A stretch of DNA of 53,791 nt, taken from a virus. Taxonomy: Duplodnaviria > Caudoviricetes. Below, piece after piece: positions 2,552 through 20,282 of this stretch (the stretch's first letter is position 1; each line of letters begins with the position of its first letter). The stretch lies in IMG/VR virus record IMGVR_UViG_3300048041_000085, positions 1 to 53,791 of that record; one strand, 5' to 3'. The notes beneath the pieces were generated by a model, which had not been told where the DNA came from, did not search any database, and was given only the letters and a program-made list of their open reading frames with translations. Position numbers and translations under genes: made by a program.

Positions 2552-2579
2552 ATTATAAACATTTTTAGATAAAAGTAAA
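2552..2579 (-). promoter_or_regulatory. Sigma70-like promoter for leader + capsid operon
   Basis: TTTACT-16nt-TATAAT on the minus strand. Confidence 0.5.
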
Positions 2580-2679
2580 ACTAATTTGTATTATTTTTTG
2601 TGGTAAAATGAGGAAAATATTTAATTGGGATAACACAAACCGAAACATAGGTAAAAACGGTAGTATCATCCCAAACTAG

Positions 2680-2835: not shown

Positions 2836-2846
2836 TTTTTTCTCCT

Positions 2847-3464
2847 TTAATGATTAAACAGTGCTGCAATATATTGTGACTTCGCATCAGAACCGAAGGT
2901 AACAGTTTGGCCGTTATTGCCTCGACCTGTAACAAATCCACCTTCAACACCGATTCGTCTTGAGCTTTCTGTGAAATGCTGAGAACTTTTGAGTTTCTTA
3001 TTTACATATTCCATTTCTCTGTCATGAAGTTCTTTCGGCCGAAGCATCCACACTAATCCGCCGCGGCGAACTAATCCAGAATCCTCATGTTGTTCTCCAT
3101 AAATATCAACAAAGCCAAGCTTAGGATAGCTTGAAGACTCAGGCGGAAGCCATCCAAATCGAATACGATGATTTACGTTACTATAATCTGAGTTGCCATA
3201 AACAGATTCTCTTACCCACATACCGACATAACCTGGAGGGGTTGCTTCCTCAGGCATGTATGTTTTACCCTTATTGTTCATTTCAAAGATTTTATCAAAA
3301 TGACTAAAGTCTATCTGAGTTGTTTGTGAAGTTGCTTCACGTGACTGTGAAGCTCGTGTTTCACGTGTGCGCCTTACATTTCTTTGAGCATAAACAGTTT
3401 CATCTTTTCCACCTAACTCAACTTCTGCTTCAGGGATATACAATTCATCAATTGAATCTTCCAT
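2847..3464 (-). CDS. Conserved head-module protein
   Basis: RETRASQSRE and WVRESVYG.SD..NV..R.R.GW / GGLVWMLRP motifs; lies between scaffold and capsid genes. Confidence 0.6.
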   Translation of the reverse strand: MEDSIDELYIPEAEVELGGKDETVYAQRNVRRTRETRASQSREATSQTTQIDFSHFDKIFEMNNKGKTYMPEEATPPGYVGMWVRESVYGNSDYSNVNHRIRFGWLPPESSSYPKLGFVDIYGEQHEDSGLVRRGGLVWMLRPKELHDREMEYVNKKLKSSQHFTESSRRIGVEGGFVTGRGNNGQTVTFGSDAKSQYIAALFNH

Positions 3465-3466
3465 TT

Positions 3467-4825: not shown

Positions 4826-5286
4826 TAGCCACCTAGATCTTTATAGGTTTCTTCCAACTTTAACGTTGATTGAATATTTTCTATATGCGCCCCATCAGCT
4901 AAGCTTATGATTCTCTCATCAGTGATATACGTTAATGTATGCTGACGATAGATTTTAACTTTCTGATCTTCATATGGCCTGAAAATAACCCAATCACCAT
5001 AAGTACACCACGGGCCAGAAGGAAACAGGCTGGGATTACGAAATGCATCGCCACCCATTCCTAAAACCATTCCCGTAACACCAACTTCATTATTTCTGAT
5101 AGTCTCAGGCATATAAACAGAGCCGTCTTTTTCAGGAGCAACCCAAAGTTTTAAGAGTACCTTAAAACCGACAGGGAAAAGAATATCGTGACCTACTTCC
5201 TTAATAACCAGATCACTGATTTCTTTATCTGTCCACTCAAACGGGCTTTTCCAATCTTTGCTACGTCCTCTTTGTCCATGTATCAT
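4825..5286 (-). CDS. groES: GroES-like co-chaperonin (Cpn10)
   Basis: PVGFKVLL..GSVYMPE..GMVLGMGGDAF..GPWCTYGDWVIF..Y..ITDERII matches phage Cpn10 pattern. Confidence 0.85.
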   Translation of the reverse strand: MIHGQRGRSKDWKSPFEWTDKEISDLVIKEVGHDILFPVGFKVLLKLWVAPEKDGSVYMPETIRNNEVGVTGMVLGMGGDAFRNPSLFPSGPWCTYGDWVIFRPYEDQKVKIYRQHTLTYITDERIISLADGAHIENIQSTLKLEETYKDLGG

Positions 5287-5288
5287 GC

Positions 5289-5600
5289 CTATTCACCATC
5301 TTCATCGTCTGGAGTGTGCTTAAGATTCACAGCATCAGGATTGATGATAGACATAATCGTAGGATTATTTTCAGGTAAAAATGTCGTCGGAGTAAAACTG
5401 GAAGCAGTTTCGTTTTGCTCACACCATTTTTGAATGGCATTCAAATACACTGAGAAATAATGAGAAAGAGAAGCTCTCCCTTGAACCTTAGGATCAATTG
5501 TATCTGCATGAAAAATAGAACTGACAAATGAATCTTTCATCTTATTCGCATCGTCAGCAATTACATTTAAAACATTTTTATAGAAATTGTCCGTTAGCAT
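5289..5600 (-). CDS. Hypothetical protein (head operon)
   Basis: ORF with AAGGA SD, tightly packed in operon. Confidence 0.6.
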   Translation of the reverse strand: MLTDNFYKNVLNVIADDANKMKDSFVSSIFHADTIDPKVQGRASLSHYFSVYLNAIQKWCEQNETASSFTPTTFLPENNPTIMSIINPDAVNLKHTPDDEDGE

Positions 5601-5619
5601 TGAGTTTCCTTTTAAAAAG

Positions 5620-5853
5620 TTAATAACTTACATTGTTTCTGTTGATTAGCTTGTCACCTTCACGTTTTACATTACCGGTGGCTTTCTTTGTGACCTTCTC
5701 TCTATATTGATCTGGCGTTTGTGTGCCACCAGGGACACCTTTGCCCTGGAAGTTCTGACCATAGTTATAATTAATAGGTACAAAAGGCGTATCTATTTGT
5801 TTAGCTGTCCGCAACTTCTCAGTTGCGGAGTTTTCTTTTACAATTTCAACCAT
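5620..5853 (-). CDS. Small basic hypothetical protein (head operon)
   Basis: ORF in operon context. Confidence 0.6.
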   Translation of the reverse strand: MVEIVKENSATEKLRTAKQIDTPFVPINYNYGQNFQGKGVPGGTQTPDQYREKVTKKATGNVKREGDKLINRNNVSY

Positions 5854-5864
5854 GAATAATAATC

Positions 5865-6185
5865 CTATCTACAGTCTTTTTTGTCCATCATACCGCCTCT
5901 TTTCATAGCAGAACGCATGACATTGTCTGCAGAACGCATGACATTGTCTCTAGGAATAAATCGACCTACGTCCATACCCATAGCATGCGCTTCTCGCTCA
6001 TCATCTGCGCCAACAGCATCACCGGCAGCATGACGTTCTCTGTCATTCTCACCGCGACTACCACCAGCACGTGCACCGCCTCGCATGTTCGTATTTGTTG
6101 GATATTCCATACCTTCGGAATCACGCTGGCGAGCCATGCCATCAACATACGCTATCGCTTCATTTCTACCCACTATCTGTGTCAT
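5865..6185 (-). CDS. Small low-complexity virion protein with KRGG motif
   Basis: ATGA overlap with portal stop; HAAGDAV/HAMGMDV/MKRGGMM motifs. Confidence 0.6.
   Translation of the reverse strand: MTQIVGRNEAIAYVDGMARQRDSEGMEYPTNTNMRGGARAGGSRGENDRERHAAGDAVGADDEREAHAMGMDVGRFIPRDNVMRSADNVMRSAMKRGGMMDKKDCR
5908..5949. repeat. Exact 21-bp tandem duplication (encodes DNVMRSA x2)
   Basis: GCAGAACGCATGACATTGTCT twice. Confidence 0.9.
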
Positions 6186-8746
6186 CGTTTTTTCTCCTTA
6201 GGTGATTCTTTAGGTTCATTGTTTGAATCATGCGACATTGCTGTAGCAAATGATTTTGATTGTACATCTAATTCGTTTTTCGTTCTATCATTTTCATATT
6301 TTAAAGTATTAGCAAACGTTTTTTCTTGGATTTGAAGGTTATTCTTTAAAATGTCTACTTCAATCCTTTTCAACTCTATTTCGTGTTTACGTTCGCTCTC
6401 TATCTCTTGGAAGGCTAAGCGACGTTCTTCAATAACCGCACTATTTTCTTCCATCTCTAATTGACGCAATTTAATTTGCATTTCTATTTCTTCTCGCTGA
6501 GATTCTTTTTCAATCTTCAGCTGATCTGTTCTAATCTGTTCCTGCTTGTATTGCGCTTCTAGCTCAATGCCTTTTTCCTTAACTCTGTTTTCTTCCATTA
6601 GCGGTATACTAGGGTCCATAGGAGCAGGATTAGCTTGTTGATCTTGATCTTTGCGTTGTTGCGCCGCATGTGCCGCACGCATTGTAAGCTCTTGTTGCAT
6701 CTCAGGCGGCATCTGTGTCGGATCTTCAGGAACCATCATACCTGTTTGAGCTTCAACTTGTTGTTCATACTCATACATATCATGCTCAACCGTATGCGCT
6801 GTTAAAGCAGCAATGAAGGCACTATTATCTTTAGTTTGATCTTGAGAAAGCGTATTAATCTCGTCTTGGTGAACAATATTATGACTCTTATGATCTTGGT
6901 TTTTATAAGCCTTAATCGGTTTGCCTTGTAATACCCATGTGTTTTCACTAACCGCATCAATTTGCGGAGGAGGAGGCGGAGGAGGCTGTGTTTTAGGATC
7001 AGGGTTCAGGATAGAATCAGCATCTTGAATCTTTAATGTCTTAAGAACTCTCTTTTGCAATTCCCGTTGATTATAAAGGTCAGGATGGGCGTCAGATACT
7101 TGCATCAAAATGTCATTAACCATCAGCTGCATTGATTGTGATGAGTTTGATGGGTCCATAACAGGGAATATCTTAATGTTTGAAGAGAAGTCACTCTTCA
7201 AAATCGCATGACTACCTCCAGGCGTCATAAATGGGTAAGCTGTATCCGGTAGAATCTGACCTAGCAAATCAAATATACGTTGGAATTCTTTTTGATAAGA
7301 ACGGTAATAAGACTTAATCAATGAATTCGGCATATCACTTGTCGTGCTTAATATACCCAAAACTGTTGTAGCCGATGTATTAGCAGGGATTTGATCTGCT
7401 TTAATCTCTCGTGCAATAGAAAGGTTTTGTATGTCCTGTGAACAAGCTTGTTTCAGCTGCATAATAACAGGTGAGGGTGGATTAAAAGGCATTGGCATAA
7501 AAACATTTTGAAGCGGTTCATTAAACGTATTCACTTGAGGAATAATGCCAGGTGTGAAATTTAATTGAGTTCGCTCAGTTCTAAGCCCTGACTTCTGTAC
7601 CACGTTAGGCATATTTGAAAGAACAGCCCCTTTAAGGATTTGCTGTTGAATCTTAGTCTCTGTCTTCGCTAATCCTAAGGCTAAGTGAATCATTCCTAAT
7701 CCATAAGCATTAAAACCCGTAAAATACTTGTGTTGGATAATATGAGAGATAGGACGAAACAAAAAATCTGATTCTTCATAATTGCGCCAGATACCAACAA
7801 TTGTATTGCTGTTCTTATCCTTAATGACTCGGTAAGGTAAATAACGCGGCGTAGGGTGGCCGTCCTTGTCGACTTCTTCAAAGCCGTTAATCTTTAAGAA
7901 CGTGTAACATTCATCCCAAACATATTTCTTATTATCATCTTGAGGCGTGTTGTCGACACCCATGACCTGCTCAACTTTTCTCGTCACGGGATCAGTCGAT
8001 TGATAGTTTTCTTCAATTATCCGTGTCTTAACCCAAAGTCTTTTTTCAAAGTTTGCTTCAACTTGTCGTTCCGTTAATGTAAAACGGTGCGTAACGCGTT
8101 CAGCATCATAGATAGACGAGGAACCACTGCTTATAATAATGTCTTGCGGCATTATATAAGGGGCCACGATACGGCCTTTGTGCGGGCAATAATAAGGCTT
8201 AACAAACGAACTACCACCTAGAACAGACCACCAAATAGCTTGTTCTGAATCAGGGATATATTCCGTCATCACTTCATTGGTATAGAAATTAAAGAACTCA
8301 CCCGTACGATAGGCTTGATCTTCTATCTGCTGATTTATGAATCCATAGATTTTTGTCTCTGCGAAATCTTTTGACGGGAATAACGTTGAGAAAAGCTTGC
8401 AGGTAATCTTTAAACATTCTGTTAAGAACGTTGCTGCATATAAATCCGTGTCTTTACCAACATCGGTAGAAGGTGCGCGCTGGGCGCCTAAACCAAGTTG
8501 AGTTATGCCCTGTGTTAGAATACGTAACCATTTGTTTCTATCATTCTCATCTGCAGTAATAGACTCGGTTAAATGCTGACCGATTCTCTCAGCTTCACCA
8601 GGATGAATAAACTGAAGAATATTTTCATTGAAGCGAGGATCAGGAGCTTGGGGGTTTTGAGAAATGTTATAATTATCTACGAAAGGATCAACCACAGGAT
8701 ACCCAGGATTATAAGCGTGATTAGAGTCGTTTCCATTGTTTAACAT
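6182..8746 (-). CDS. Portal protein
   Basis: 854 aa; GSSFVKPYY, AERVTH, GFNAYGLGMIHL, AYKNQDHKSH..H motifs and C-terminal coiled-coil barrel typical of P22-like podovirus portals. Confidence 0.85.
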   Translation of the reverse strand: MLNNGNDSNHAYNPGYPVVDPFVDNYNISQNPQAPDPRFNENILQFIHPGEAERIGQHLTESITADENDRNKWLRILTQGITQLGLGAQRAPSTDVGKDTDLYAATFLTECLKITCKLFSTLFPSKDFAETKIYGFINQQIEDQAYRTGEFFNFYTNEVMTEYIPDSEQAIWWSVLGGSSFVKPYYCPHKGRIVAPYIMPQDIIISSGSSSIYDAERVTHRFTLTERQVEANFEKRLWVKTRIIEENYQSTDPVTRKVEQVMGVDNTPQDDNKKYVWDECYTFLKINGFEEVDKDGHPTPRYLPYRVIKDKNSNTIVGIWRNYEESDFLFRPISHIIQHKYFTGFNAYGLGMIHLALGLAKTETKIQQQILKGAVLSNMPNVVQKSGLRTERTQLNFTPGIIPQVNTFNEPLQNVFMPMPFNPPSPVIMQLKQACSQDIQNLSIAREIKADQIPANTSATTVLGILSTTSDMPNSLIKSYYRSYQKEFQRIFDLLGQILPDTAYPFMTPGGSHAILKSDFSSNIKIFPVMDPSNSSQSMQLMVNDILMQVSDAHPDLYNQRELQKRVLKTLKIQDADSILNPDPKTQPPPPPPPQIDAVSENTWVLQGKPIKAYKNQDHKSHNIVHQDEINTLSQDQTKDNSAFIAALTAHTVEHDMYEYEQQVEAQTGMMVPEDPTQMPPEMQQELTMRAAHAAQQRKDQDQQANPAPMDPSIPLMEENRVKEKGIELEAQYKQEQIRTDQLKIEKESQREEIEMQIKLRQLEMEENSAVIEERRLAFQEIESERKHEIELKRIEVDILKNNLQIQEKTFANTLKYENDRTKNELDVQSKSFATAMSHDSNNEPKESPKEKKR

Positions 8747-8848
8747 TCCGTGGGGTAAGCTACATATGCATGAGATTTATATAAAATAAATGTAATTTAC
8801 ATTTTATACAATAACGATTTTAATTTTATTAAATTTATTTATAAATTG

Positions 8849-8934
8849 TAATGATTTCACAATGATTGCATTTTGACATCATTGTTGTTGTTTTGAGTTT
8901 AAAATGATGTCATAGTGATTGCATATTGAAATCA
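8849..8934. promoter_or_regulatory. parS/operator-like array: TGAnn(T/G)CA boxes with 11-bp period upstream of parA
   Basis: TGATTTCA 8852, TGATTGCA 8863, TGACATCA 8874, TGATGTCA 8905, TGATTGCA 8916, TGAAATCA 8927. Confidence 0.7.
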
Positions 8935-8954
8935 AAACGAATGAAGAGTGAAAA

Positions 8955-9596
8955 ATGATAGTATTAGTAGGTGGAGAAAAAGGTGGCACGGGAAAGACGA
9001 CAATAGCAACAAATCTGGCGGCGATGCGCACAGCAGTGACTGGAGAGGTATTGCTAGTTGATACTGATGCACAGTCAACATCAACGTATTGGTGCTCCCG
9101 TAGAGAAGACAATGGAATTGTTCCACGTGTAACGAGTATCCAAAAGTCCGGTAAAGCCGTTAAGTCTGAGGTTGTCGAACTCAACAAAAAATACACTGAC
9201 ATTATAATAGATGCAGGTGGGAGAGATTCCCCCGAACTTAGAAGTGCACTTCTTGTTTGTGATAAGGTGATATTCCCCTTAAGACCGTCTCAGTTTGATA
9301 TGTGGACACTCGACAGGCTTAATATGTTAGTTAATACGGCTTTAGAGATAAACGAACCCCTTAAAGCTTATGTGTTGGTTAATCAGTCGCCAACAAACCC
9401 TGCAAGCAAAGAAGTTAAAGAGATGAAAGCTTTCTTAGATGAGTTTGATCAACTTGAGCTATTATACTCTGTCGTTTGCGAAAGAATTGCCTTTAGAAGA
9501 GCTGCCCTCGCTGGGTTATCTGTTGTAGAACATAAACCAGAAGATCAAAAAGCTAACTTTGAAATTAATAGTCTTTATGGAGAAATATACGCATGA
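8955..9596 (+). CDS. parA: ParA-family partition ATPase (type Ib, no N-terminal HTH)
   Basis: Deviant Walker A KGGTGKTT, LVDTDAQ, IIIDAGG; 213 aa. Confidence 0.95.
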   Translation: MIVLVGGEKGGTGKTTIATNLAAMRTAVTGEVLLVDTDAQSTSTYWCSRREDNGIVPRVTSIQKSGKAVKSEVVELNKKYTDIIIDAGGRDSPELRSALLVCDKVIFPLRPSQFDMWTLDRLNMLVNTALEINEPLKAYVLVNQSPTNPASKEVKEMKAFLDEFDQLELLYSVVCERIAFRRAALAGLSVVEHKPEDQKANFEINSLYGEIYA

Positions 9597-9877
9597 CACA
9601 AAACAAGTTTTCAAGACCAACTATATCTACTGCTGACAAAGAAAAAAAGGCTGAAGAGTTTATAGGCTTTATGGACAAAGTAGCCGATGAGAAAACAAAA
9701 GAGCGTACAACTGAAAAAGAAGATACGCACCTTTTTTCCTTTAGAATCCCAATCTCTCTATTTGATGATATGAAAGAGATATCTGCTTTATCAAGGATAT
9801 CTCTCAACTCTATCTGTTTAGATGCTATCCGGTCTTGTGTTAAGAAAAAACTGAAGGAGCTAAAGGAAGATGAATAG
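9593..9877 (+). CDS. Putative centromere-binding RHH protein (ParG-like partner of ParA)
   Basis: ATGA overlap with parA; flexible N-terminus (AEEFI) and FSFRIP..LFDDMKEIS....SLNSI ribbon-helix-helix pattern. Confidence 0.75.
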   Translation: MTQNKFSRPTISTADKEKKAEEFIGFMDKVADEKTKERTTEKEDTHLFSFRIPISLFDDMKEISALSRISLNSICLDAIRSCVKKKLKELKEDE

Positions 9878-10085
9878 ATTTAGAGTACATATCACATTTG
9901 CAAATGGCGTACATACTATAGATGGGCCAAGATTTGAAACAGCTGAAGAGGCTCAACGTTTTTGTGAAAACTCTATAAAATTTAGAGAAGGAACTATCTT
10001 TGAAATTTGGAAACTTGGTGAAGATCCTACCCCTGATAAATTAGATATTGTGGGAAAATTAAACATCGATTGGGAATATCAATAA
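9870..10085 (+). CDS. Hypothetical protein
   Basis: Overlapping ORF in par operon. Confidence 0.55.
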   Translation: MNRFRVHITFANGVHTIDGPRFETAEEAQRFCENSIKFREGTIFEIWKLGEDPTPDKLDIVGKLNIDWEYQ

Positions 10086-10095
10086 GAGCTGAAAG

Positions 10096-10383
10096 ATGAG
10101 GGATAATATGGGAGATGGAATTGATGAACTATTGCCTCGAGAAAAATCATATAGGGTATGGCAAGGGCTAGGATTATATCTAGAAGTAATACCTAACGGT
10201 AGCAAGTATTGGCGTTTTAAATACAGATTTAATAAAAAAGAAAAGCGTCTTGCGTTAGGTGTCTATCCTGAAGTTTCTTTATCAAAAGCACGTATAAATT
10301 GTCTAAGGGCCAGGAGTCTTTTGAAAGAGGGAATAGATCCGTCAGTATTAAAACAAATTTATAAACGTGCAATGGGAGTATAG
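10096..10383 (+). CDS. Stand-alone integrase arm-type DNA-binding domain (DUF4102/Arm-DNA-bind_3)
   Basis: GLYLEVIPNGSKYWRFKYRF.KKEKRLALGVYPEVSL..AR....GIDP; stop follows, no catalytic domain. Confidence 0.9.
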   Translation: MRDNMGDGIDELLPREKSYRVWQGLGLYLEVIPNGSKYWRFKYRFNKKEKRLALGVYPEVSLSKARINCLRARSLLKEGIDPSVLKQIYKRAMGV

Positions 10384-10385
10384 AT

Positions 10386-10679
10386 ATGGGTGCTTGTTAT
10401 TATGCCTACAACGAAAAAGAAAAGAAATATTTCAAACCCCCTAAACATAAAGATAAGGGTTATGACTTAGGCGACAAAGCCTATCAAATATACCAGCCAT
10501 GGAATCCTTTCCCTAATATGCTTTTGATGATGAATGTATATACAACAGATATCTTCGATGAAGATTATTGGAAGTTAGGATCAGATGAAGCTATAACTTC
10601 ACCAGGCAATCTTGATGATTATGAGGATATTACAGAACAAGTTTACAAAAAGTATCTATATCATACTGTCCATGATTAG
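10386..10679 (+). CDS. Hypothetical phage protein
   Basis: ORF with GGAG SD in operon. Confidence 0.55.
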   Translation: MGACYYAYNEKEKKYFKPPKHKDKGYDLGDKAYQIYQPWNPFPNMLLMMNVYTTDIFDEDYWKLGSDEAITSPGNLDDYEDITEQVYKKYLYHTVHD

Positions 10680-10692
10680 CGCTGAATAATAA

Positions 10693-10766
10693 TCGGAAAT
10701 CGTCTAACGGTAGGACAACAGGTTTTGGTCCTGTTAATATTGGTTCGACTCCAGTTTTCCGATCCA
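10693..10766 (+). tRNA. tRNA-Gln (anticodon UUG)
   Basis: Acceptor TCGGAAA/TTTCCGA, anticodon stem ACAGG/CCTGT with TTG at 10725-10727, TTCGA T-loop, encoded CCA; U1-A72. Confidence 0.92.
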
Positions 10767-10772
10767 GTTTTC

Positions 10773-10913
10773 CTAATTTATGCGCAGCTGTCCTGATATC
10801 AGTCGGGGGAGGAGGGTGTCACGGAGTTTTGCGAGAGTTTGTACTTGTTCTACGCCGCGATTTATATAAGAACTGGCTTTTGCCAGGGTTGTAAATACCC
10901 ACTCAGATTCCAT
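10773..10913 (-). CDS. hsdS: 46-aa mini-HsdS (type I RM specificity subunit with both TRDs deleted in frame)
   Basis: ATG overlaps hsdM 3' end; MESEWVFTTL..YINRG (HsdS N-terminus) fused to QTLAKLRDTLLPRLISGQLRI (conserved HsdS C-terminus). Confidence 0.75.
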   Translation of the reverse strand: MESEWVFTTLAKASSYINRGVEQVQTLAKLRDTLLPRLISGQLRIN

Positions 10914-12339
10914 ATCCAAGACCTCCGAGCTTCTGTCTAATAACTTCATCGAGCTCTGTGCCTTTCGCCATTTGCTCACTCAACTGTTTGGTCAGTTTCA
11001 GCATTAGGGTGTTAAAGTCTTCATCCGTATCTTCTACATCTTCAACACCCACATAACGACCTGGTATTAATACATGCCCATGCTTTGCAATATCCGAGAT
11101 CTTCACGCTACAACAAAACCCGGGTACGTCTTGATATGTTCCAGCATCTTTCTCACCTCGCCAAGCGTGATACGTACCCGCAATGCGTGCTACGTCTTCA
11201 TCTGTTAATTTTTTTCGTGTACGATCAACCATCACTCCTAGTTTGCGAGCATCAATAAAAAGCACTTCACCACGACGATCTCGCCAACCGTTTCCTGGGT
11301 TTTTGTTGCGTGTGAGAAACCATAAACATACTGGAATTTGTGTTGAATAGAAAAGTTGACCAGGTAGAGCAACCATGCAATCCACAACGTCTTGTTCAAC
11401 CATCTCACGGCGTATAACATCTTCATCTGATTGCGCTGATGACATTGATCCATTAGCGAGGACTACACCCGCACTACCATTAGGGGCAAGATGATGAATG
11501 ACGTGTTGAAGCCAAGCGAAGTTAGCATTGCTAACAGGTGGTGTTCCGTATTTCCAGCGCACATCTTCTCGTAATCGTTCACCTTTCCAATTAGAAATAT
11601 TAAAAGGGGGATTGGCAAGAATGTAATCCATTTCCATATTGGGAAACTCATCATTAAGAAGAGTTCCTTCATTATTCCAACGTATATCTGAGTTCATATT
11701 GTGCATAGCAAGATTCATCTTTGCCAAACGCCAAGTTAAGCGATTTAATTCTTGCCCATAAAATGTAATATTTCCAGTATGCGTTTTGTTGCTATGCATA
11801 AACATACCACCAGAACCACAAGTAGGATCATAAATACGACCATGAAAAGACTGAAGCATCTCAACTAGTAATTGGACCACAGAGCATGGTGTATAAAATT
11901 CACCACCAAGTTTACCTTCAGCACCAGCAAATTGACCAAGGAAATATTCATAAACACGACCCAATATGTCTTTAGATTCTTTACTATCATTCTCAATCTT
12001 AGAAATAAGTAAAATTAATTCACCTAAACTTTGTTGATTAATTTCAGATCTTTCATAGTCTTTTAATAAAATATCTTTGAGTGATTCATTATTCTCTTCG
12101 ATAGATAACATTGCATTATCAATTAATGTGCCAATCTTTGGTTCTTTTGCATTATCTTTAAGATATGACCACTTAGCATTATCACGAATTAAAAAACAAT
12201 TTGAATCAGAAATATATTTTAGGAAAATTAATCCAAGAACAATATGCTTATAATCAGAATATTCTATATTGCCGCGCAATTTCTCTGAGATTTTAAATAA
12301 TTGATTTTCAAAAGACGGGGTTGTTGATTCAGATTTCAT
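10903..12339 (-). CDS. hsdM: Type I RM methyltransferase subunit (N6-adenine)
   Basis: LGLIFLKYISD, GEFYTP, YDPTCGSGGM (motif I), NPPF (motif IV), PGRYVG; no hsdR in genome. Confidence 0.95.
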   Translation of the reverse strand: MKSESTTPSFENQLFKISEKLRGNIEYSDYKHIVLGLIFLKYISDSNCFLIRDNAKWSYLKDNAKEPKIGTLIDNAMLSIEENNESLKDILLKDYERSEINQQSLGELILLISKIENDSKESKDILGRVYEYFLGQFAGAEGKLGGEFYTPCSVVQLLVEMLQSFHGRIYDPTCGSGGMFMHSNKTHTGNITFYGQELNRLTWRLAKMNLAMHNMNSDIRWNNEGTLLNDEFPNMEMDYILANPPFNISNWKGERLREDVRWKYGTPPVSNANFAWLQHVIHHLAPNGSAGVVLANGSMSSAQSDEDVIRREMVEQDVVDCMVALPGQLFYSTQIPVCLWFLTRNKNPGNGWRDRRGEVLFIDARKLGVMVDRTRKKLTDEDVARIAGTYHAWRGEKDAGTYQDVPGFCCSVKISDIAKHGHVLIPGRYVGVEDVEDTDEDFNTLMLKLTKQLSEQMAKGTELDEVIRQKLGGLGYGI

Positions 12340-12356
12340 TAATTATTCATTCTTCT

Positions 12357-12408
12357 TGATTTCATTATAACATCATTATAACATCATTATAACATCATTA
12401 CGATGTCA
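12357..12408. repeat. Second 11-bp-period box array upstream of hsdM
   Basis: TGATTTCA-TTA-(TAACATCA-TTA)x3-CGATGTCA; same box as upstream of parA. Confidence 0.75.
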
Positions 12409-12724
12409 AGAGACTAATATTTGTGAGTTTGGTATGCATATTGGTATTTCTCTTACAGTTTTTGAGTTCACCGCGATGAGGTGGTCACAATCTGTGACCA
12501 ACTGAAAATGAAAGCCAGTTGTGAAATTCCATAAGTTTACAAATTCTTTCCTTTTTTCTAAACGCTAATTTTTCATTAAAGCTAATGATTATGCCAAGTT
12601 ATAGTCAATTTTATGGTGCGAAAAATAACACTACATTCGCTCAATTTTGCGATCTATTCTCCAAGGTATGTTCAAGCGATCACAAGATTGCTTATGAAAC
12701 GTCATAAACCAAAGGAGTAAAAAA

Positions 12725-12916
12725 ATGGCACTTAATAAATTTATCCGCGAACCTGAATGTTTCTTAATTACAGGATTAAGTCGTCCGACCAGATGGAGAC
12801 TAGAACGCGACAACAAATTCCCTAAACGTCATAAGATATCGCAAAATACAATTGGATGGTTAGAAAGTGATATTGAGGCCTGGATCAATAGTAGAGTAAA
12901 TAACTCTCATGAATAA
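12725..12916 (+). CDS. alpA: AlpA-family regulator / excisionase
   Basis: FIREPEC..ITGLSRPTRWRLE....FPKR.KIS.NTIGWLESDIEAWI. Confidence 0.9.
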   Translation: MALNKFIREPECFLITGLSRPTRWRLERDNKFPKRHKISQNTIGWLESDIEAWINSRVNNSHE

Positions 12917-12969
12917 CCGTATAAACATCATTACGATGTTGTAAGGATAGAAGTATGAGGGATAATTAA

Positions 12970-13869
12970 ATGACAAAGAAATTTAAATTTATCGATTTGT
13001 TTGCAGGCATAGGAGGGTTCCACCATGCCTTTCATGATCTTGGTGCGGAATGTGTCTTTGCCTCGGAAATAGACCCTCATGCTCGAAAAAGTTACGAGTA
13101 TAACTTAAAAGGCATATCTCCTAAGTTATTTTCTTCTAATAAATTTAATGATGATATTTTAAAAATCGCCAATGATGCTATAGACGAAGAAATCCCCGAC
13201 TTTGATATTTTATGTGCAGGATTTCCATGTCAACCATTTAGTCAGGCAGGATTTAAGCGCGGCTTTAAAGAAGAAAAAGATTCTCGTGGAAATATGTTTT
13301 TTAAAATAAGGGATATAATAAAAGTTAAGAGGCCTAAAGTTATATTTCTTGAAAATGTTAGATATCTTCTAAAACATGAAAACGGTGAAACATTCTCAAT
13401 TATAAAAAATATTTTAGAAAAAGAATTAGAATATGATTTGCATTATGAAATAGTAAAAGCTTCCGATTTCGGTCTGCCACAGCATAGACCCAGACTTTTT
13501 ATAATAGGTTTTAGGAAGGAAGATAAATATATAAAACCCTTCAAACCGCCGATAAAAATACCTTTAAAACTAACTATGTCCGACATATTCGGTGGTGTTT
13601 GCAACTCAACGATAGGATATACCTTAAGGGTTGGCGGGAGAGGTTCGGGACTTAATGATAGAAGAAACTGGGATTCTTATTTGGTTAATAATCTGCCTAT
13701 TCGTTTAACTTCTAAAGAGGGACTTGCAATGCAGGGATTTCCGAAAGATTTTAGATTTCCCGTATCGGAGAGCCAAGCTATGAAACAGCTCGGCAATAGC
13801 GTTGCCGTTAATGCTATTAAAGCTTATGGAAAAGCTATTATAGAAAGGCTAAACTCATCCATTATCTAA
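12970..13869 (+). CDS. Orphan C5-cytosine DNA methyltransferase
   Basis: FIDLFAGIGG, GFPCQ, ENV, PQHRPR, QLGNSV motifs; no adjacent endonuclease. Confidence 0.95.
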   Translation: MTKKFKFIDLFAGIGGFHHAFHDLGAECVFASEIDPHARKSYEYNLKGISPKLFSSNKFNDDILKIANDAIDEEIPDFDILCAGFPCQPFSQAGFKRGFKEEKDSRGNMFFKIRDIIKVKRPKVIFLENVRYLLKHENGETFSIIKNILEKELEYDLHYEIVKASDFGLPQHRPRLFIIGFRKEDKYIKPFKPPIKIPLKLTMSDIFGGVCNSTIGYTLRVGGRGSGLNDRRNWDSYLVNNLPIRLTSKEGLAMQGFPKDFRFPVSESQAMKQLGNSVAVNAIKAYGKAIIERLNSSII

Positions 13870-14065
13870 CAGGGCATATCGTGGCAATGGCGTGTAGAAA
13901 GATCAGCTGAGATTGATCAAATCGCTCTAAAACCAAACAATTCTTATCATAGTCGACAATCACACCATCTAATTTGATGCCATTTATGAGATACATCATA
14001 ACTTTTGTTTGCCTATGCATAAGGGAGGCTAGAAAAACAGTTTCTATTTTAGATTCAGTTCTCAT
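13862..14065 (-). CDS. hfq: Hfq-family RNA chaperone (divergent)
   Basis: FL..L, YLINGIKLDG.I..YD, SQLIFLHAIATICP align in register with Hfq Sm1/Sm2. Confidence 0.9.
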   Translation of the reverse strand: MRTESKIETVFLASLMHRQTKVMMYLINGIKLDGVIVDYDKNCLVLERFDQSQLIFLHAIATICPVR

Positions 14066-14090
14066 TAATTATTCCTTCTTTTTGCTATCG

Positions 14091-14591
14091 TTATGATGTC
14101 GAATTGCTATCATTATGATGATGTTTTGATGGCATTATGAATGATAGTCCATCATCTTTCCATCTCATGTGCTCATTAAAATATTCATCATTTCTAATTT
14201 TATTTATGAGATCAAAATTAGCTCCAGAGTCTATAGATTGAATGAGGTGGATATGCTTAATAATCCCATTGCTATTGCTTTCCTTATAAGGAGATAGGAT
14301 CTTAAACCATATTTGATGTTTATTTTCGAAAAGATAAACCCAAAAGGCTAAGCATCTATGGGAACCTTCTAAGAAGGTATGAGTATTAGCTTGGAACGTA
14401 TGAACACAAACAGGACAGTAGAAAAATCCTTTGTTTGATTTATATTTATCATAATTATAAGAGATTTTCTTCCTAGGGTGGCTCTTATGTCCGCAATTCA
14501 AACAATGAATGCAATCTGGGAAACGTAACTTAATTAATAAGTGATCATCTTCAAGTGTATATTTTAGGTAATCTTTGTATGGTTTTCCCAT
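14091..14591 (-). CDS. IS1595-transposase-like zinc-ribbon protein, no DDE domain
   Basis: LRFPD..HCLNCG...CPVC..F......F.EGSH..L..W resembles IS1595 N-terminal Zn ribbon. Confidence 0.55.
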   Translation of the reverse strand: MGKPYKDYLKYTLEDDHLLIKLRFPDCIHCLNCGHKSHPRKKISYNYDKYKSNKGFFYCPVCVHTFQANTHTFLEGSHRCLAFWVYLFENKHQIWFKILSPYKESNSNGIIKHIHLIQSIDSGANFDLINKIRNDEYFNEHMRWKDDGLSFIMPSKHHHNDSNSTS

Positions 14592-14912
14592 TTCTTATTC
14601 TTTTTTACTTTCCGTCTTAATCAATGCCTTTTCTCGCATCGCATTTCTTTTCATAACGCTTGCTTTTTTGTAATTCAAGCAATACTTCCAGTTCTTTTTA
14701 CGTTTAAGCTTATGGGATGTCACTTTTTACTTTCCATAATGCACATTATGCGACAGACCAATATGAGGAAGAAGATAATTGACTAGCCCTTGTATAAGCA
14801 AGAGCTAGTCGTGCATACATACCTATAACATGAATAAAAGTCATATGCACAAAAGGGTTCCAGGTGTAACTCTCTCAAGATATATTATATACTACTCAAT
14901 ATCTGAGTTCAA

Positions 14913-15191
14913 CTAATTAGGCTTCTCTTCATCATCACAAATCATCAATTTCAATGTATTTATATTTAGTATAAACTTGTCAATGAGACTTTGCGCATAC
15001 CCTTTGTCAATTTTCTGCACCGAATAAATACAAGAAGCAATAATACTACCTGCAATTGAAAGATGTTGCTGTGGATGATGCAACGAATTAATCTCAGGCG
15101 TTATTTTTTCTATGACGTTTACCACATCTTGTACATCATCACTTTTTTCTATTTTCTCTAATTGTTCGAATGTCATTAATTTAATTGTCAT
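14913..15191 (-). CDS. Hypothetical protein
   Basis: ORF overlapping upstream gene. Confidence 0.55.
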   Translation of the reverse strand: MTIKLMTFEQLEKIEKSDDVQDVVNVIEKITPEINSLHHPQQHLSIAGSIIASCIYSVQKIDKGYAQSLIDKFILNINTLKLMICDDEEKPN

Positions 15192-15480
15192 CTTCTCTTA
15201 CCTTTATGTATTCATCCCTAAGAATATCTACCAACATCTTTTTTAACTCATATTTTGCATCATTAAAGTCTGTAATCGTTATCAATACAAAGTTCCTCAA
15301 CATCTCTTTATATAAAGGTTTATTATCATAGTGATAAAAGATCACGTTATCAGCTAAGTCTCTGATATTTGTATTGTCTGAATCATCTAGTGCTATCATC
15401 AATTGAAGCAGAGGCTCTTTAACCTTTTTAAAGAAATTTAGTGCAATTTGTTCTAAGCATTGTCTTTGATGCAGTAGCAT
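15181..15480 (-). CDS. Hypothetical protein
   Basis: ORF track. Confidence 0.5.
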   Translation of the reverse strand: MLLHQRQCLEQIALNFFKKVKEPLLQLMIALDDSDNTNIRDLADNVIFYHYDNKPLYKEMLRNFVLITITDFNDAKYELKKMLVDILRDEYIKVREDDN

Positions 15481-15546
15481 TAGCTAATATCTACAGAAAC
15501 TGAACTATTAAGCATCAGACGCCCCACAAAACAGTTGTGTATATCG

Positions 15547-16149
15547 CTAAACTTCATCAGGTGCTCCTGGAAATTTATCGGGATAAAGATTATCTATTAA
15601 TGCTGTTCCTCTATTAACGCCAATTGGGATTAATGTTTCATCGTCATTATCCTCTATTTCCTTAATTCTATCCTTACACAATTGACGATTCAAAACTATC
15701 CATTTTCCCTTCTCAGTTATCCAACAACCTTGTAAACAAGTCCCATAATCAACCAAATCTTTTCCATGAAATAAGCATAATAGGGTATTTATGTATTTTT
15801 CTAAGCCCAGATGAATGGCATGCTTTGTTCTATCCGATAGGTAATCAGATAAAGTAAGGTGAGCATAGAAAATGTTTTTCAATTTCTCTAAAGTATTATT
15901 ACCTACATAGTTATCCATGCCATTATACAAATGCTTAAGAATGGTTAAGCAATCATTATCATCAAAGTTATTTGAACCTGTAAAACCTAAAAAATGAGAT
16001 AAAAGCGTATCCGTATTATCTAAGTATATGTAACCTTTGTTAGGATCACTTACCCACATACCAGAATCTGGATCTTCTATCATATAAGCCAAACCAAAAG
16101 GACAATTCGATGCTCTGTATATATCAGCCCATTTGTTTACTTCATTCAT
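15547..16149 (-). CDS. Hypothetical phage protein
   Basis: 200-aa ORF coupled to upstream gene. Confidence 0.6.
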   Translation of the reverse strand: MNEVNKWADIYRASNCPFGLAYMIEDPDSGMWVSDPNKGYIYLDNTDTLLSHFLGFTGSNNFDDNDCLTILKHLYNGMDNYVGNNTLEKLKNIFYAHLTLSDYLSDRTKHAIHLGLEKYINTLLCLFHGKDLVDYGTCLQGCWITEKGKWIVLNRQLCKDRIKEIEDNDDETLIPIGVNRGTALIDNLYPDKFPGAPDEV

Positions 16150-16646
16150 TTTTCTTCTTCTTTCTTATCTGATTTAAAAGCTTCTTTTATTTCATCTACA
16201 GTATCATACCCACCACCTTCACCACGATAATGAATAACAAACTTATCTATATGGCCATTAAACTCAAACTCATGGATGAAATCTTCAGACATTACAGTCC
16301 TATATAATGGATTTAACATCAAAGGATCTGCAATATCTGGAGGATAAACACGCTCTTGAATAGCTTTCTTTAATGCTTCCATGCGATCTGGTGAATTCTT
16401 TAAATCTTTCAATTCAGATAACAAATCAATTTTTCTAGCACTTGCTAACGCATCCTTAGCGAGTTTATAAGCCTCAATGAAATCGTTGATTTTACTCTCA
16501 GGATACATAATAAACGCATTAATCAAATCTAGAAGGTCCAAACGATCCCTACACGTAGAGCCTTCTGTAGCCCTTAAAAAGGCTTTCTCGAATCTAGAAC
16601 AATCACGATACTTTAGTAGAAATTGATCAATAGGATTTATAATCAT
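16146..16646 (-). CDS. Hypothetical protein
   Basis: 166-aa ORF. Confidence 0.6.
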   Translation of the reverse strand: MIINPIDQFLLKYRDCSRFEKAFLRATEGSTCRDRLDLLDLINAFIMYPESKINDFIEAYKLAKDALASARKIDLLSELKDLKNSPDRMEALKKAIQERVYPPDIADPLMLNPLYRTVMSEDFIHEFEFNGHIDKFVIHYRGEGGGYDTVDEIKEAFKSDKKEEEK

Positions 16647-16701
16647 CTATTAGCCTTCTTACTTCTAAGTTTGCGTTTTGTTTTCGTTAATTTCTTCTTC
16701 A

Positions 16702-16851
16702 TTACAACACCGCCTCAATAATCTCTGGATCAGCCTCAACAATCTCCTCAACCACATCTTCGACGATAAATTCATCTTCTTTGGGTAAGCAATAAAAGCC
16801 TATACCAGCTACGAGGAGAACAATCAATAGACCTAATTCATACTGTTTCAT
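16702..16851 (-). CDS. 49-aa single-TM acidic membrane protein, candidate lysis accessory
   Basis: MKQYELGLLIVLLVAGIGFYCLPKEDEFIVEDVVEE..; ATGA-coupled to endolysin stop. Confidence 0.6.
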   Translation of the reverse strand: MKQYELGLLIVLLVAGIGFYCLPKEDEFIVEDVVEEIVEADPEIIEAVL

Positions 16852-17354
16852 TGGTTTAATCCCTTCAACAAAGCATCCATCTCCCCAATCGTATACATTG
16901 CTGGTAATTCATGGCTTCCCAGCTGTACGTGATCTGAATCTGTTGCTGGCTCTGGCCAATTACGCCCTGGTGTTAACCCCACCAATAAAGCTTGTGCTGC
17001 CAGAATATCATAAATAGGACCACCCGCCATGTCTCCATCAACGAATATGTCACAAGCTTTTCCTATGAGATGATAGCTATAAATGAATGTGTGAGTAACC
17101 TGAGGACCATTAGCCTGAGGCCCTACGCCTTGCAATACCGATGCCGCATAAGGCGCATCATTAGCAATCAACATCGCTATCTCAGCATTAACTTGATCAG
17201 TTGTCCTGCTTTGTCGCCATAGCTTAGCCTGTTCTTCCAATGTCCGAATGCCATAATATGGATTAACAGTGTGTCCGAGTGCTTCCATATTTGTTAATAG
17301 CTCTTGAAGCAATTGGGCGAATGTAGGGTCTAGTTTTGTAAAATCAATTGTCAT
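16848..17354 (-). CDS. Endolysin, M15-family (L-Ala-D-Glu peptidase-like)
   Basis: RTLEEQAKLW.Q.RT, SYH..GKACD, D..HVQ zinc-peptidase motifs; probable start MTIDF (ORF open to 17384). Confidence 0.85.
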   Translation of the reverse strand: MTIDFTKLDPTFAQLLQELLTNMEALGHTVNPYYGIRTLEEQAKLWRQSRTTDQVNAEIAMLIANDAPYAASVLQGVGPQANGPQVTHTFIYSYHLIGKACDIFVDGDMAGGPIYDILAAQALLVGLTPGRNWPEPATDSDHVQLGSHELPAMYTIGEMDALLKGLNQ

Positions 17355-17418
17355 TTTCTTACCTTCTTTATGTGTATTTTTCATAAAATAAAAAATTATT
17401 CTAATTTATTCAAGTGTT

Positions 17419-19137
17419 TTAGTAATTAATATCACTATACGTTAAGTTCGGACTCAAGTGCGAAATCAAGCTTGGATCATCACGCCATCTATGTTCTTGT
17501 ACAGGTGGTTCTTCTGTCGGTAAATATACTAGCTCACGTGCTCTTATTTCAATAAATGCTTGAGATACAGCGTCGACTAAGTCTTGATCTTTAGAGGTAG
17601 GACACCCTAACAGGGCTTGCATCACTCTATTAGCAAATGGATACAATATACCATTCTCATTTGAAGGTAACCATACAAGCCCTTGCTCTACCGTGATACT
17701 AGCTAACCGTGCACGTCTTGTTTTGCCTGATTCATCACTGCCACCACTTAACCCACGAACATTAGGATTAAACCCGAATATGGGAAGGCCTGAACGATTT
17801 AAGTCTTGAATTATTCCCTTACCTTGGAGTGTATCCTCTATGAGTATGATGTCAGCTGCCTTAGATAGTGCAGGGTCTCTCATCTCGATAGAATGAGATC
17901 TAAGAGATGGGTTTATACTGTGATAGTTCCTACCTAATCTTATAATCATTCGCCTTAGATCAGGTTGCTCTAGTTTCCCTGACCATGCGCCCAATAAGAT
18001 CAAATGAAATGCATTGTCAAGCGTTTGAAAGACGCCGAAGGTGCAGCAAGCTGATTCGCAGGCGTCAATTCCAGTCGCAACTGCTGTGTCCCAACTCTGG
18101 ACTATACATAAACAAGCAGGTGCCTTTCCTTCATCCCAGATATTAAACCACTCCCGTTTGAAAATGTTACCTGATTCTGCTGTCGGTAGCTGTTGGAGCT
18201 GAGAGCTTCTATTATACTCTGTACCTAGCATGATCTTTAATTCATCTACATAAGAGCGTGGCATACGTGATGGCCAGAGGAGTTCTTTGTCTTTAGAACG
18301 GGGATCAGTCCAGGCTGTCTTACTATCACCGATAGGAATCGTTACACATTTACGAGCTGGATCAAATTCCATGGGTAACATCAAATGATATGTCTTGGGT
18401 AATTTCATGTCTAACAGAAGCTGAGCCGCATCCTCCTCATGTAATCTTTGCATAATAAGAATGGTTACGCTAGTTGTGGTGCTGTCTTGACGCACAAAGA
18501 TCGAATACAGACGGGCACGCGTTCTATCTCTTAATGTCTTATAGATGATGTCGTCTGCTCTGTTGATATCATCAAATATGTTAATGTCTCCACCATGACC
18601 AACAGCATTACCGCCAATAGATTTAATAATGCGTTCTCCGCCTCTCATATTAGCGAACCTAGAGTTGGTATTCACATCCTTCCGCAACTTGACTTGAGTG
18701 CCCCAGAATTTTTGATATAATTCAGACTCTATAATGCGTTTGCATTTAATAGAGTCACGCATAGAGAGATCTTTATCACCTGTTAGACAAAATACCTTCT
18801 TATGAGAATGTTTTATCCAGGCAAAAGCGGGAAAGAATACGTTACAGATTAAGGATTTCATGCAACGAAAAGGAATATTAATAACAAGGTAACGTATCTT
18901 ACCTTCAAGTGTGGCCTGGAGATGCAGAGCTATATCTCTGATATGCCAATTGTCAAAAAACTGGTGTTCTCCTTCTACAATATGCCAGAAAGTCTTGATG
19001 AAATAATGAAGAGACTCTTCACACTTGCGCTTAGTCTCTTGCTCTTCTTCAGTTAGAATAACGAATTGATATTTACGTTGCTCTTGTACTTCTATGCATG
19101 ATTCATGCCTCTTTTTTAGCAGAGTAGCAACTGACAT
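17419..19137 (-). CDS. terL: Terminase large subunit
   Basis: Walker A NIPFRCMKS, Walker B DINIFDD, MQRLHE.D, QQ.P, nuclease SWDTA and D.DLVDA.SQA. Confidence 0.93.
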   Translation of the reverse strand: MSVATLLKKRHESCIEVQEQRKYQFVILTEEEQETKRKCEESLHYFIKTFWHIVEGEHQFFDNWHIRDIALHLQATLEGKIRYLVINIPFRCMKSLICNVFFPAFAWIKHSHKKVFCLTGDKDLSMRDSIKCKRIIESELYQKFWGTQVKLRKDVNTNSRFANMRGGERIIKSIGGNAVGHGGDINIFDDINRADDIIYKTLRDRTRARLYSIFVRQDSTTTSVTILIMQRLHEEDAAQLLLDMKLPKTYHLMLPMEFDPARKCVTIPIGDSKTAWTDPRSKDKELLWPSRMPRSYVDELKIMLGTEYNRSSQLQQLPTAESGNIFKREWFNIWDEGKAPACLCIVQSWDTAVATGIDACESACCTFGVFQTLDNAFHLILLGAWSGKLEQPDLRRMIIRLGRNYHSINPSLRSHSIEMRDPALSKAADIILIEDTLQGKGIIQDLNRSGLPIFGFNPNVRGLSGGSDESGKTRRARLASITVEQGLVWLPSNENGILYPFANRVMQALLGCPTSKDQDLVDAVSQAFIEIRARELVYLPTEEPPVQEHRWRDDPSLISHLSPNLTYSDINY

Positions 19138-19340
19138 CCACTAATCTTGAAAAACAATCATGATATCTATAAAAACGGTAATAAAGAACACAATGCCTAG
19201 AAACATAGCTGCCAAACAAATAATTTTCTCTTCCCAAGTCGCATCCTCAAGATAGTTTATGAATTCGTTCATCATCTATACACCTGTCTCTATAATGTTT
19301 TTTACACTATAACAAAACAGTAACAAATTTTATATAAATT

Positions 19341-19715
19341 TTATTTAACTGATAATATAAGCATACCTGCTGTCGTAACATTATTAGGATTCTGTAACCC
19401 ACCTATTCCATAATGATCAGGTGCTGTATCATCGTCGTGAGAAAAATCTTTACCATGATAAAAATGTAATTTAATCAACCCTTCATCTGTCCAATAATAA
19501 GAATAATCTGATGTCTTGCTCGTCTTCCATGGCCAAGGCCAGCCTTGAGAAGGATCAATATAGGTTTCTAATTTCTTTATCTCATCTAAAAATCCTTCTT
19601 CATTTCTGGCATCAAGAACCTCAATAACTCCGGAGGGGTATCCATCATGAGATACACTCCCTACCCACTTTGAATCTTTCCCTTTACCAATATAGAAATC
19701 TGCGCGTGTACCCAT
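19341..19715 (-). CDS. Conserved phage hypothetical (MGTR..HDGYP type)
   Basis: MGTRADFY...SHDGYPSG motif. Confidence 0.6.
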   Translation of the reverse strand: MGTRADFYIGKGKDSKWVGSVSHDGYPSGVIEVLDARNEEGFLDEIKKLETYIDPSQGWPWPWKTSKTSDYSYYWTDEGLIKLHFYHGKDFSHDDDTAPDHYGIGGLQNPNNVTTAGMLILSVK

Positions 19716-19985
19716 CTAAAAATCCTTAATGTCTATGCCCACACCTAAGTCATGAGGCTGTCGTGCTGGTAGCCCCATTTTATCAACTCCATTGCCATTT
19801 CCATCGAAAATATCTAAATGACGGGCTTTCCTTGAAAGTTCAAGCGCCTCCTTAAATACTTGGAATAAGTTTTCGTCTTCGATATTGTCCATTCCCTCAA
19901 TTGTGAATATTCCATGTTCCCATTTGATGGTAATTTCATGACGATTAATGAATGTTATTATTCCATATTGTTTTTTATTTCTCAT
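19716..19985 (-). CDS. Hypothetical protein
   Basis: Tightly packed ORF. Confidence 0.5.
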   Translation of the reverse strand: MRNKKQYGIITFINRHEITIKWEHGIFTIEGMDNIEDENLFQVFKEALELSRKARHLDIFDGNGNGVDKMGLPARQPHDLGVGIDIKDF

Positions 19986-20282
19986 TTAAAGCTCCGTTAT
20001 CTTAATAGGATACAAAAATTCTACCATTTTCTTGTTCTTGATATATGTAGGTGTCCTTTTCCCCTTCACATCTTCAACACCAATGTTGCCGTCTTTCCAT
20101 ACCACATAGAAATCACAGAGATATTTAACATTACCCGGAAGATGGAATGGAGCTTGCCGCAGGAAGTACAATACTTCTCCCGCTTGTTGTAATAACTTAA
20201 GCTCACAATATCGATTTGCTTCCTTTTTAGAACTAAAAGGTATGGCGTCAATAGTGGTACGTACGTTACGATACTTATTCAT
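19986..20282 (-). CDS. DUF1064-family PD-(D/E)XK endonuclease
   Basis: NKYRN..T.ID.I.F.SKKEA.RY..L, Y.CDF, EDVKG..T..Y..K.K. Confidence 0.85.
   Translation of the reverse strand: MNKYRNVRTTIDAIPFSSKKEANRYCELKLLQQAGEVLYFLRQAPFHLPGNVKYLCDFYVVWKDGNIGVEDVKGKRTPTYIKNKKMVEFLYPIKITEL

Follow-up and report, generated by a model that had tools for sequence, protein, structure and literature searches.

A phage-borne Hfq with a rebuilt uridine pocket and conserved distal-face residues

The three RNA-binding surfaces of Hfq have been told apart chiefly through point mutants made in the laboratory, among them K56A, R16A and Y25D. Whether a virus can carry an Hfq in which these surfaces have parted naturally is the question raised by a short open reading frame (ORF) on a 53,791-nucleotide sequence of a tailed phage (Caudoviricetes; IMG/VR record IMGVR_UViG_3300048041_000085), analysed here over its whole length and called the window. 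The ORF, on the minus strand at positions 13862-14065, begins with ATG and encodes a 67-residue protein with an Sm fold, here P0001, which Pfam, an AlphaFold2 model, Foldseek and residue mapping all place in the Hfq family. It has replaced the residues that hold uridines on the proximal face and the arginines of the rim, while the residues of the distal face are kept, and this rebuilt pocket suggests that P0001 probably handles RNA otherwise than ordinary Hfq. The finding rests on four sequences and one genome.

P0001 is a member of the Hfq family

That P0001 is a true Hfq-family protein is secure, because searches by profile, by sequence and by structure, together with a structural model, all agree. 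The Pfam Hfq family (PF17209) matches it at 58.9 bits, with the cut-off set at 27 (E 3.8e-16; 58.8 bits in a six-frame search), and a sequence search of the PDB at E<=1 returned 36 distinct Hfq sequences, the best of which is that of Caulobacter crescentus Hfq (6gwk, 50.3 bits). An AlphaFold2 model built on an alignment of 68 sequences has a mean predicted local distance difference test (pLDDT) score of 93.9 and consists of one helix (residues 7-17) and five strands (21-26, 31-39, 43-48, 51-56 and 60-65). When this model was compared with the PDB by Foldseek, all 50 matches listed were Hfqs, headed by chains of 6gwk with template-modelling (TM) scores of 0.88-0.93 and root-mean-square deviations of 0.4-0.8 Å. 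A prediction of a four-copy oligomer scored 0.10 against a mark of 0.42, a result that weighs on neither side of the question of a ring.

P0001 misses the cut-offs of all three NCBIfam equivalog models for Hfq (TIGR02383, 59.2 bits against 61.7; NF001602, 58.5 against 95; NF010691, 59.4 against 270), and that of Pfam Hfq_1 (PF21979, 25.6 against 27). Membership in the cyanobacterial Hfq-related family NF047718 was considered and rejected, the match reaching 24.6 bits where 52 are required. No family in PHROGs or PADLOC corresponds to P0001, and BFVD returned no match at E<=0.001, its best being an 'Hfq-like domain' protein of a mycobacteriophage (1.7e-3).

The uridine pocket and rim are replaced and the distal residues kept

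Residues were mapped by aligning P0001 to Salmonella Hfq (L002), whose core numbering we assumed to be the E. coli numbering used in papers on Hfq; after one extra loop residue, the protein's own numbering runs ahead by one, such that its F56, L57, H58, Q53 and T62 stand at Y55, K56, H57, Q52 and T61. An initial annotation, made from the sequence alone, had described Q8E, D9T, R16M, R17H, F42N and K56L, all of which are borne out by this alignment, which adds R19Q, Q33D, F39Y, Q41K and Y55F. The retained residues that it had listed (Y25, N28-G29-I30-K31-L32 and Q52) are likewise present, together with L26, H57 and T61.

According to the part of PMC10628458 that describes the proximal pocket, F42 stacks on the base, and Q8, K56, position 41 and H57 contact it; this list does not back the role in binding U-tails that had been ascribed to D9. 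Of the pocket formed by Q8, an aromatic residue at 42, K56 and H57, P0001 retains the histidine alone (E8, N42, L57 and H58). The basic rim patch of R16, R17 and R19, which sets the annealing rate as described in the same source, is replaced by M16, H17 and Q19, and across the four members of the clade to which P0001 belongs these positions read M/M/K/L, H/N/N/N and Q/E/E/K, respectively. In the mutant work described in PMC6239178, K56A blocks proximal binding and R16A traps small RNA (sRNA) without annealing.

The distal R-site is present in all four clade members (Y25, L26, N28, G29, I or V at 30, L32, Q53 and T62). The face that had been called intact is thus retained residue by residue, but its retention has little evidential weight, because these residues are conserved in nearly every member of the family: among 84 other Hfqs, taken as those of at most 125 amino acids within the best 150 matches, L26 is found in 83, G29 in all 84, and L32 and Q52 in 82 each. 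A loop insertion had also been noted as alphaproteobacterial in type. P0001 does have one more residue between β3 and β4 than the Hfqs of E. coli, Salmonella and Pseudomonas, but chains from Caulobacter, Neisseria, Aquifex, Thermotoga, Bacillus and Staphylococcus all have ungapped alignment ranges at this loop length, which is therefore no mark of Alphaproteobacteria.

The rebuilt pocket is rare among Hfqs

Of the same 84 Hfqs, 77 have K, 3 have R and 1 has L at position 56; an aromatic residue (F or Y) occupies position 42 in 59 of them, and N does so in 8. Counted by domain, 113 of 200 other domains combine an aromatic 42 with K or R at 56, and 28 have neither trait; several of these 28 are truncated, and many come from Hfq proteins with two or three domains. 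Such tandem proteins (P0022, P0024, P0041, P0049 and P0119, with two-domain forms such as P0046) retain N-G-I-K-L and Q52 and have W, L, M or another non-basic residue at position 56; tandem-domain Hfqs may form pseudo-hexamers from fewer chains.

On whether the same substitutions recur in other phage Hfqs, a check that the initial annotation had proposed, the answer was negative: a pattern scan of IMG/VR that allowed either K or L at position 56 recovered 21 Hfq loci with 15 distinct cores, all 21 of which have K56 and H57, with Q8 and an aromatic 42 in 20. The picture in cells is similar. We scanned 185,579 species-representative genomes with patterns that included one built on F-L-H, and the best 80 of the 190 relatives found all have K56, with an aromatic 42 in 74. 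The net charge of the core ranges from -2 to +1 in the clade of P0001 against a median of +3 in these 80 cellular cores, of which 13, including nine low-GC relatives, also lie at or below +1.

Close relatives indicate constraint

A word-indexed search of 5.8 billion proteins turned up three close relatives, at 90%, 78% and 70% identity (P0002, P0003 and P0004), and phmmer, run exhaustively against 1.84 billion representatives, gave 1421 matches at E<=0.001 and one cluster at E<=1e-30. The clade comprises four clusters at 90% identity. Scans of viral and genome contigs with P0001 alone and with a four-sequence profile returned no further members, as did a scan of viral contigs with a ten-sequence profile; a metagenome scan produced two relatives only, at 40% identity, and the 7 records found in a phage collection and 69 in a plasmid collection were all below 60% identity to P0001.

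Within the clade, 43 of 67 columns do not vary, N42, C43, F56, L57, H58 and C64 among them, and the most variable columns are the rim positions 16-19. As a neutral expectation, the window's own coding sequence was subjected to random nucleotide change until it reached equal amino-acid divergence. The mean BLOSUM62 score of replacements is 1.29, 0.93 and 0.70 for P0002, P0003 and P0004, against -0.29, -0.35 and -0.40 in the simulations, and the fraction of simulations that reached the observed scores was 0.011, 0.0035 and 0.0025, respectively; at these same divergences, 30%, 56% and 69% of neutral runs met a stop codon first. Only 1 of 12 columns conserved across the family varies within the clade (P 0.026). 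Because N42 and L57 are found in all relatives and the differences between them are more conservative than neutral drift, P0001, judged by these patterns of substitution, is not a pseudogene and evolves under constraint. The random decay that the initial annotation had named as the mark of a pseudogene is not seen: homologous ORFs are intact and differ conservatively.

In the wider set from the profile search, a hydrophobic residue at 56 occurs with a non-aromatic 42 in P0155 (56% identity; YDDNC ... YIH), in P0156 and P0157 (46-48% identity; Q8 and D9 retained), in P0110 and P0154 (41-45% identity; 90 amino acids, with F-L-H, E at 42 and a 23-residue tail) and in P0165. C43 is also found in P0155-P0157 and in some cellular Hfqs; C64 is shared by P0155, and P0156 and P0157 have V there.

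Some of the losses may predate the phage gene

A tree of 106 rows and 63 columns, from a quick IQ-TREE search, groups the window clade with P0155, P0156/P0157 and P0165, with support of 88 in the Shimodaira-Hasegawa-like approximate likelihood-ratio test (SH-aLRT). That group nests in a 29-row set (SH-aLRT 97), the rest of which are metagenome-assembled genomes (MAGs) of Betaproteobacteria labelled Neisseriaceae or Burkholderiales, and the placement persists without the six trait columns, when sets of 16 and 28 rows are found at SH-aLRT 100. At the loci of the 13 MAGs checked, G+C is 31-37%.

Among the nine nearest cellular Hfqs, seven have no K or R at positions 16, 17 and 19 and two have a single one; position 42 is non-aromatic in five and C43 is present in three, with Y55-K56-H57 in all nine and Q8 in eight. 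Five MAGs of 1.7-2.4 Mb (G001-G005; loci L028, L029, L030, L037 and L091) each encode a single Hfq that has a non-aromatic 42 and keeps Y-K-H, and three of these proteins (L029, L030 and L037) have no K or R at the rim positions. Four of the MAGs are labelled Betaproteobacteria (Neisseriaceae or Burkholderiales) and that of L030 Proteobacteria only; at L030 and L037, which were checked, hfq lies in a der-hfq-hflX-Band7 setting. As these states of the rim and of position 42 are common to sole-copy cellular Hfqs, they would not, if the tree is right, be adaptations to life in a phage; the loss of the rim and of F42 would predate the phage copy, leaving K56L, Y55F, Q8E and D9T as the changes of this lineage itself.

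Some comparisons would fit an alphaproteobacterial origin of the clade as well. In pairwise alignments P0001 scores highest against Hfqs of Alphaproteobacteria (46%), whose loop length also matches, and an approximately unbiased (AU) test did not reject a clade placed with the alphaproteobacterial rows (p 0.20). In both trees P0110 and P0154 are placed apart from the window clade, which requires that F-L-H arose by two changes, and these two proteins may represent a convergent loss of K56.

What P0001 may do

With the proximal pocket and the rim gone and the distal R-site left, the most likely role for P0001 is that of a selected phage Hfq that would bind A-rich RNA by its distal face only and would not match sRNAs to their targets, a reading that we favour tentatively, at somewhat short of even confidence. 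The suggestion of the initial annotation that P0001 is not a normal sRNA matchmaker stands as an inference, supported by the replaced residues of the pocket and arginine patch, the invariance of N42 and L57 and the missed equivalog cut-offs. A uridine pocket that lacks F42, K56 and Q8 and has an acid at position 8 would fail to hold the 3' U-tails of sRNAs, and annealing would be slow without the arginine patch. The remaining R-site could then bind A-rich stretches in mRNAs, either those of the host or the phage's own, and such binding could mask ribosome-binding sites, tie up mRNAs or set P0001 in competition with host Hfq for them. A precedent for distal-face action is Hfq3 of the Bacillus anthracis plasmid pXO1, whose toxicity, as described in PMC5348863, needs distal-face residues and neither proximal residues nor the cell's own Hfqs. 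The ribosome-binding site of the phage hfq is itself an A-rich (ARN) stretch, and runs of (ARN) with at least five repeats occur at the starts of 4 of 68 genes, hfq and its upstream gene being two of them. The structured capsid leader that had been put forward as a target gains no support, as the 2302-2846 intergenic stretch 5' of the head genes is free of such runs.

Several observations weigh against this reading. Given local composition, the (ARN) runs at gene starts do not stand out significantly (P 0.07 at hfq; P 0.07-0.14 overall), and the near-universal distal residues may be retained for the fold and not for RNA binding. Q33D, invariant in the clade, puts an acid at a position where K33 of Staphylococcus aureus Hfq contacts RNA, as described in PMC3505971; the same source names the extra loop residue among two features through which the A-site is lost in Gram-positive Hfqs, which makes an A-R-N mode of binding uncertain. 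The low net charge of the clade cores argues for weak RNA binding overall, and the states of the rim and of F42 are, if the tree is right, shared with sole-copy cellular Hfqs and so would be no adaptations of the phage. A bolder version seems doubtful to us, in which the uridine pocket has turned into a surface that no longer binds RNA and the A-rich face is kept, making P0001 a natural separation-of-function Hfq with which the phage would take over or neutralise host Hfq control through A-rich mRNA sites or through host rings. Were it true, P0001 would become the first mimic of Hfq in a virus whose mode of action is defined, and P0110 and P0154 would be a second, convergent origin of the same design.

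Two further readings concern sRNA regulation. It might remain an ordinary RNA chaperone that binds sRNA through H58, position 41, K21 or another proximal mode, a possibility that extends to its low-GC cellular relatives. H58 is indeed invariant in the clade, the sole-copy Hfqs of the five MAGs are presumably functional despite a non-aromatic 42 and, in three, a rim without K or R, and low G+C is tied in the account of PMC10628458 to a weaker need for the arginine patch, the phage being at about 37% G+C; yet K56 is found in all 80 cellular Hfqs examined, low-GC relatives included, and is lost in P0001, E8 puts an acid in the pocket and all three equivalog cut-offs are missed, such that we think this unlikely. 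Alternatively, P0001 could poison host Hfq by co-assembly, giving mixed hexamers with broken uridine pockets and a collapse of sRNA regulation. In P0001, the strands by which subunits pair in solved Hfqs are well conserved (SQLIFLHAIATICP), and PMC5348863 describes both unstable hexamers of K56A E. coli Hfq and K53A Hfq3 in semi-native gels and a monomeric B. anthracis Hfq1 that disrupts E. coli Hfq with a dominant-negative phenotype. The core clade is, however, at most 46-47% identical to any cellular Hfq examined, its sequence gives no pointer to mixing over self-assembly, and Hfq3, in the same paper, stayed toxic in cells deprived of their own Hfqs; we consider the poisoning of host rings quite improbable.

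Two more readings are a docking role and a passenger gene. The rebuilt proximal face, with L and N around the pore and with C43 and C64, could serve as a docking surface for a protein, a role that has been put forward for cyanobacterial Hfq, or in some other role that does not involve RNA, in keeping with the invariance of N42, C43, L57 and C64 in the four members, a net charge near zero and the precedent of Synechocystis Hfq, which, as described in PMC4152361, apparently acts outside riboregulation. The shortfall against the cyanobacterial Hfq-related model (24.6 bits, cut-off 52), the occurrence of C43 in cellular Hfqs and the want of an evident partner, the adjacent gene encoding an unrelated Zn-ribbon protein, speak the other way, and we regard a docking role too as having only a slim chance. 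Slimmer still is the chance that hfq is a passenger, captured from a host, useless to the phage and decaying. Its place in an accessory stretch of lower G+C (0.32-0.33) beside methyltransferases and its tiny family of four clusters at 90% identity might be expected of such a gene, but across 70-90% identity the ORFs remain intact, free of stops and changed conservatively, the hfq sequence is identical in contigs of four sequencing runs and its ribosome-binding site is good.

Relation to known Hfqs and what P0001 would add

P0001 shares its family, fold, R-site residues and H57 with canonical Hfq (Salmonella and E. coli; 6gwk), and is 39-42% identical to 6gwk, but it differs in Q8E, D9T, F42N, K56L, Y55F and Q33D and has neither an arginine patch nor a C-terminal tail. 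By its description in PMC5348863, Hfq3 of pXO1 is likewise an extra Hfq on a mobile element, with a short tail and a rim unlike that of E. coli; that protein is plasmid-borne and of Gram-positive type, with proximal K53 and Q4. The Hfqs of the low-GC betaproteobacterial MAGs group with P0001 in the tree (SH-aLRT 97-100), have 0-1 K or R in the rim and lie at loci of similar G+C, whereas they have Y55-K56-H57, mostly Q8, a β3-β4 loop three residues longer and a der-hfq-hflX setting. Other hfq-family genes on contigs classed as viral (IMG/VR L006-L026; MT835489) keep K56 and H57 (21 of 21); some of them, situated at contig ends, may represent host DNA. The cyanobacterial Hfq-related family NF047718 resembles P0001 in that it is described as having an Hfq fold with altered RNA binding. 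A search of the main texts of papers found no description of a phage-encoded Hfq.

On the evidence of constraint, P0001 would be a natural and selected counterpart of the proximal and rim mutants combined, carried on a complete phage genome, and it bears on how the faces of Hfq divide their work. If it binds A-rich RNA only, viruses can use a stripped-down Hfq, and the functions of the distal face could readily be dissected with it; entry into host rings would make it an agent of phage interference with host RNA regulation of a new kind. Bacteria of low G+C whose sole Hfq has no arginine rim or no F42 bear, in turn, on the limits of Hfq drift in cells.

The hfq locus

The start codon of hfq is preceded at 7 nt by a Shine-Dalgarno-like AAGGA, read from the sequence (14077-14073, minus strand), which falls within the (ARN)5 run at 14082-14068. 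Upstream, with 25 nt from its stop to the hfq start, lies a 166-residue ORF (14091-14591, minus strand) whose product has Pfam matches only at E 0.1-0.6, Atlas feature matches of 0.89-0.91 and structure TM scores of 0.50-0.56; as a lead only, it resembles the N-terminal part of IS1595-type transposases, with a Zn-ribbon and without the DDE domain. The leader of this gene pair contains a promoter-like site from a consensus scan (14884-14912, minus strand; TTGAAC, a 17-nt spacer and TATAAT, 10 of 12 matching), then a 12-bp hairpin without a following T run (14781-14810, minus strand) and then about 190 purine-rich nt before the genes. Such promoter-like sites are no commoner in the region than in shuffled sequence (20 observed, 26.6 expected), and a scan with Rfam matched a tRNA alone.

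At its 3' end, hfq shares 8 nt with the end of a convergent gene for a C5 cytosine DNA methyltransferase (12970-13869, plus strand; PF00145, 249.5 bits; PADLOC type II MTase, 298.6 bits). This gene belongs to an accessory group adjoining hfq, with an AlpA-like regulator and an HsdM-like N6 DNA methyltransferase (10903-12339, minus strand; PF02384, 338 bits; PADLOC MTase_I, 552.7 bits); the regulator sits between the two methyltransferases (window 10903-13869), and the neighbouring ORFs scanned showed no specificity or restriction subunit. Like hfq, this group is placed between the terminase and portal modules. Around hfq, G+C falls to 0.32-0.33; the genome, at about 0.37-0.40, has two low stretches, of which this is one.

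The phage, its source and its host

The IMG/VR record of 53,791 bases is rated 100% complete and has one Hfq match. It is classed as linear without end repeats, and ORFs run off both of its ends (1-667, and 53327-53791 on the minus strand). The hfq gene lies between the terminase and portal modules and closes a leftward series of genes that starts beyond the terminase, whose large subunit (17419-19137, minus strand; phrog_38, 201.8 bits) is encoded 3.3 kb 5' of hfq on the same strand. Elsewhere the record encodes a Holliday-junction resolvase, an endolysin-like protein, a major head protein, a protein with a weak adaptor/portal-like match, virion and tail proteins, an Erf-like recombinase and a tRNA-Gln.

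Several matches were examined as pointers to the host. The terminase is closest to those of phages of Alphaproteobacteria (about 32% identity), plasmid genes of Acetobacter and Zymomonas share 59% identity with the HsdM-like gene, and the C5 methyltransferase is 59% identical to a plasmid gene of Francisella philomiragia; megablast of window 1-25000 against phages gave no match. A comparison of window 1-20000 with the five low-GC MAGs found a match to the HsdM-like gene only (66-74%), and no tie between phage and MAGs. A 30-nt match of 94% to a low-GC MAG was considered as a host link and rejected, as it lies outside any repeat array.

Part of window 12000-20000 is present in 19 sequencing runs, all labelled peat metagenome and none of them an RNA run, and nine contain half or more of its words. 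Five of these nine may be the source of the record, and the remaining four come from four studies; contigs assembled from four runs over 12600-15600 are identical to the window wherever hfq is covered, with no variant. A GroEL-like chaperonin (29580-31322, plus strand; phrog_5725, 402 bits) is also encoded, in a phage of only 54 kb; its best matches in the phage collection, at about 34% identity, are mostly to phages of 157-179 kb, together with one bacterial contig.

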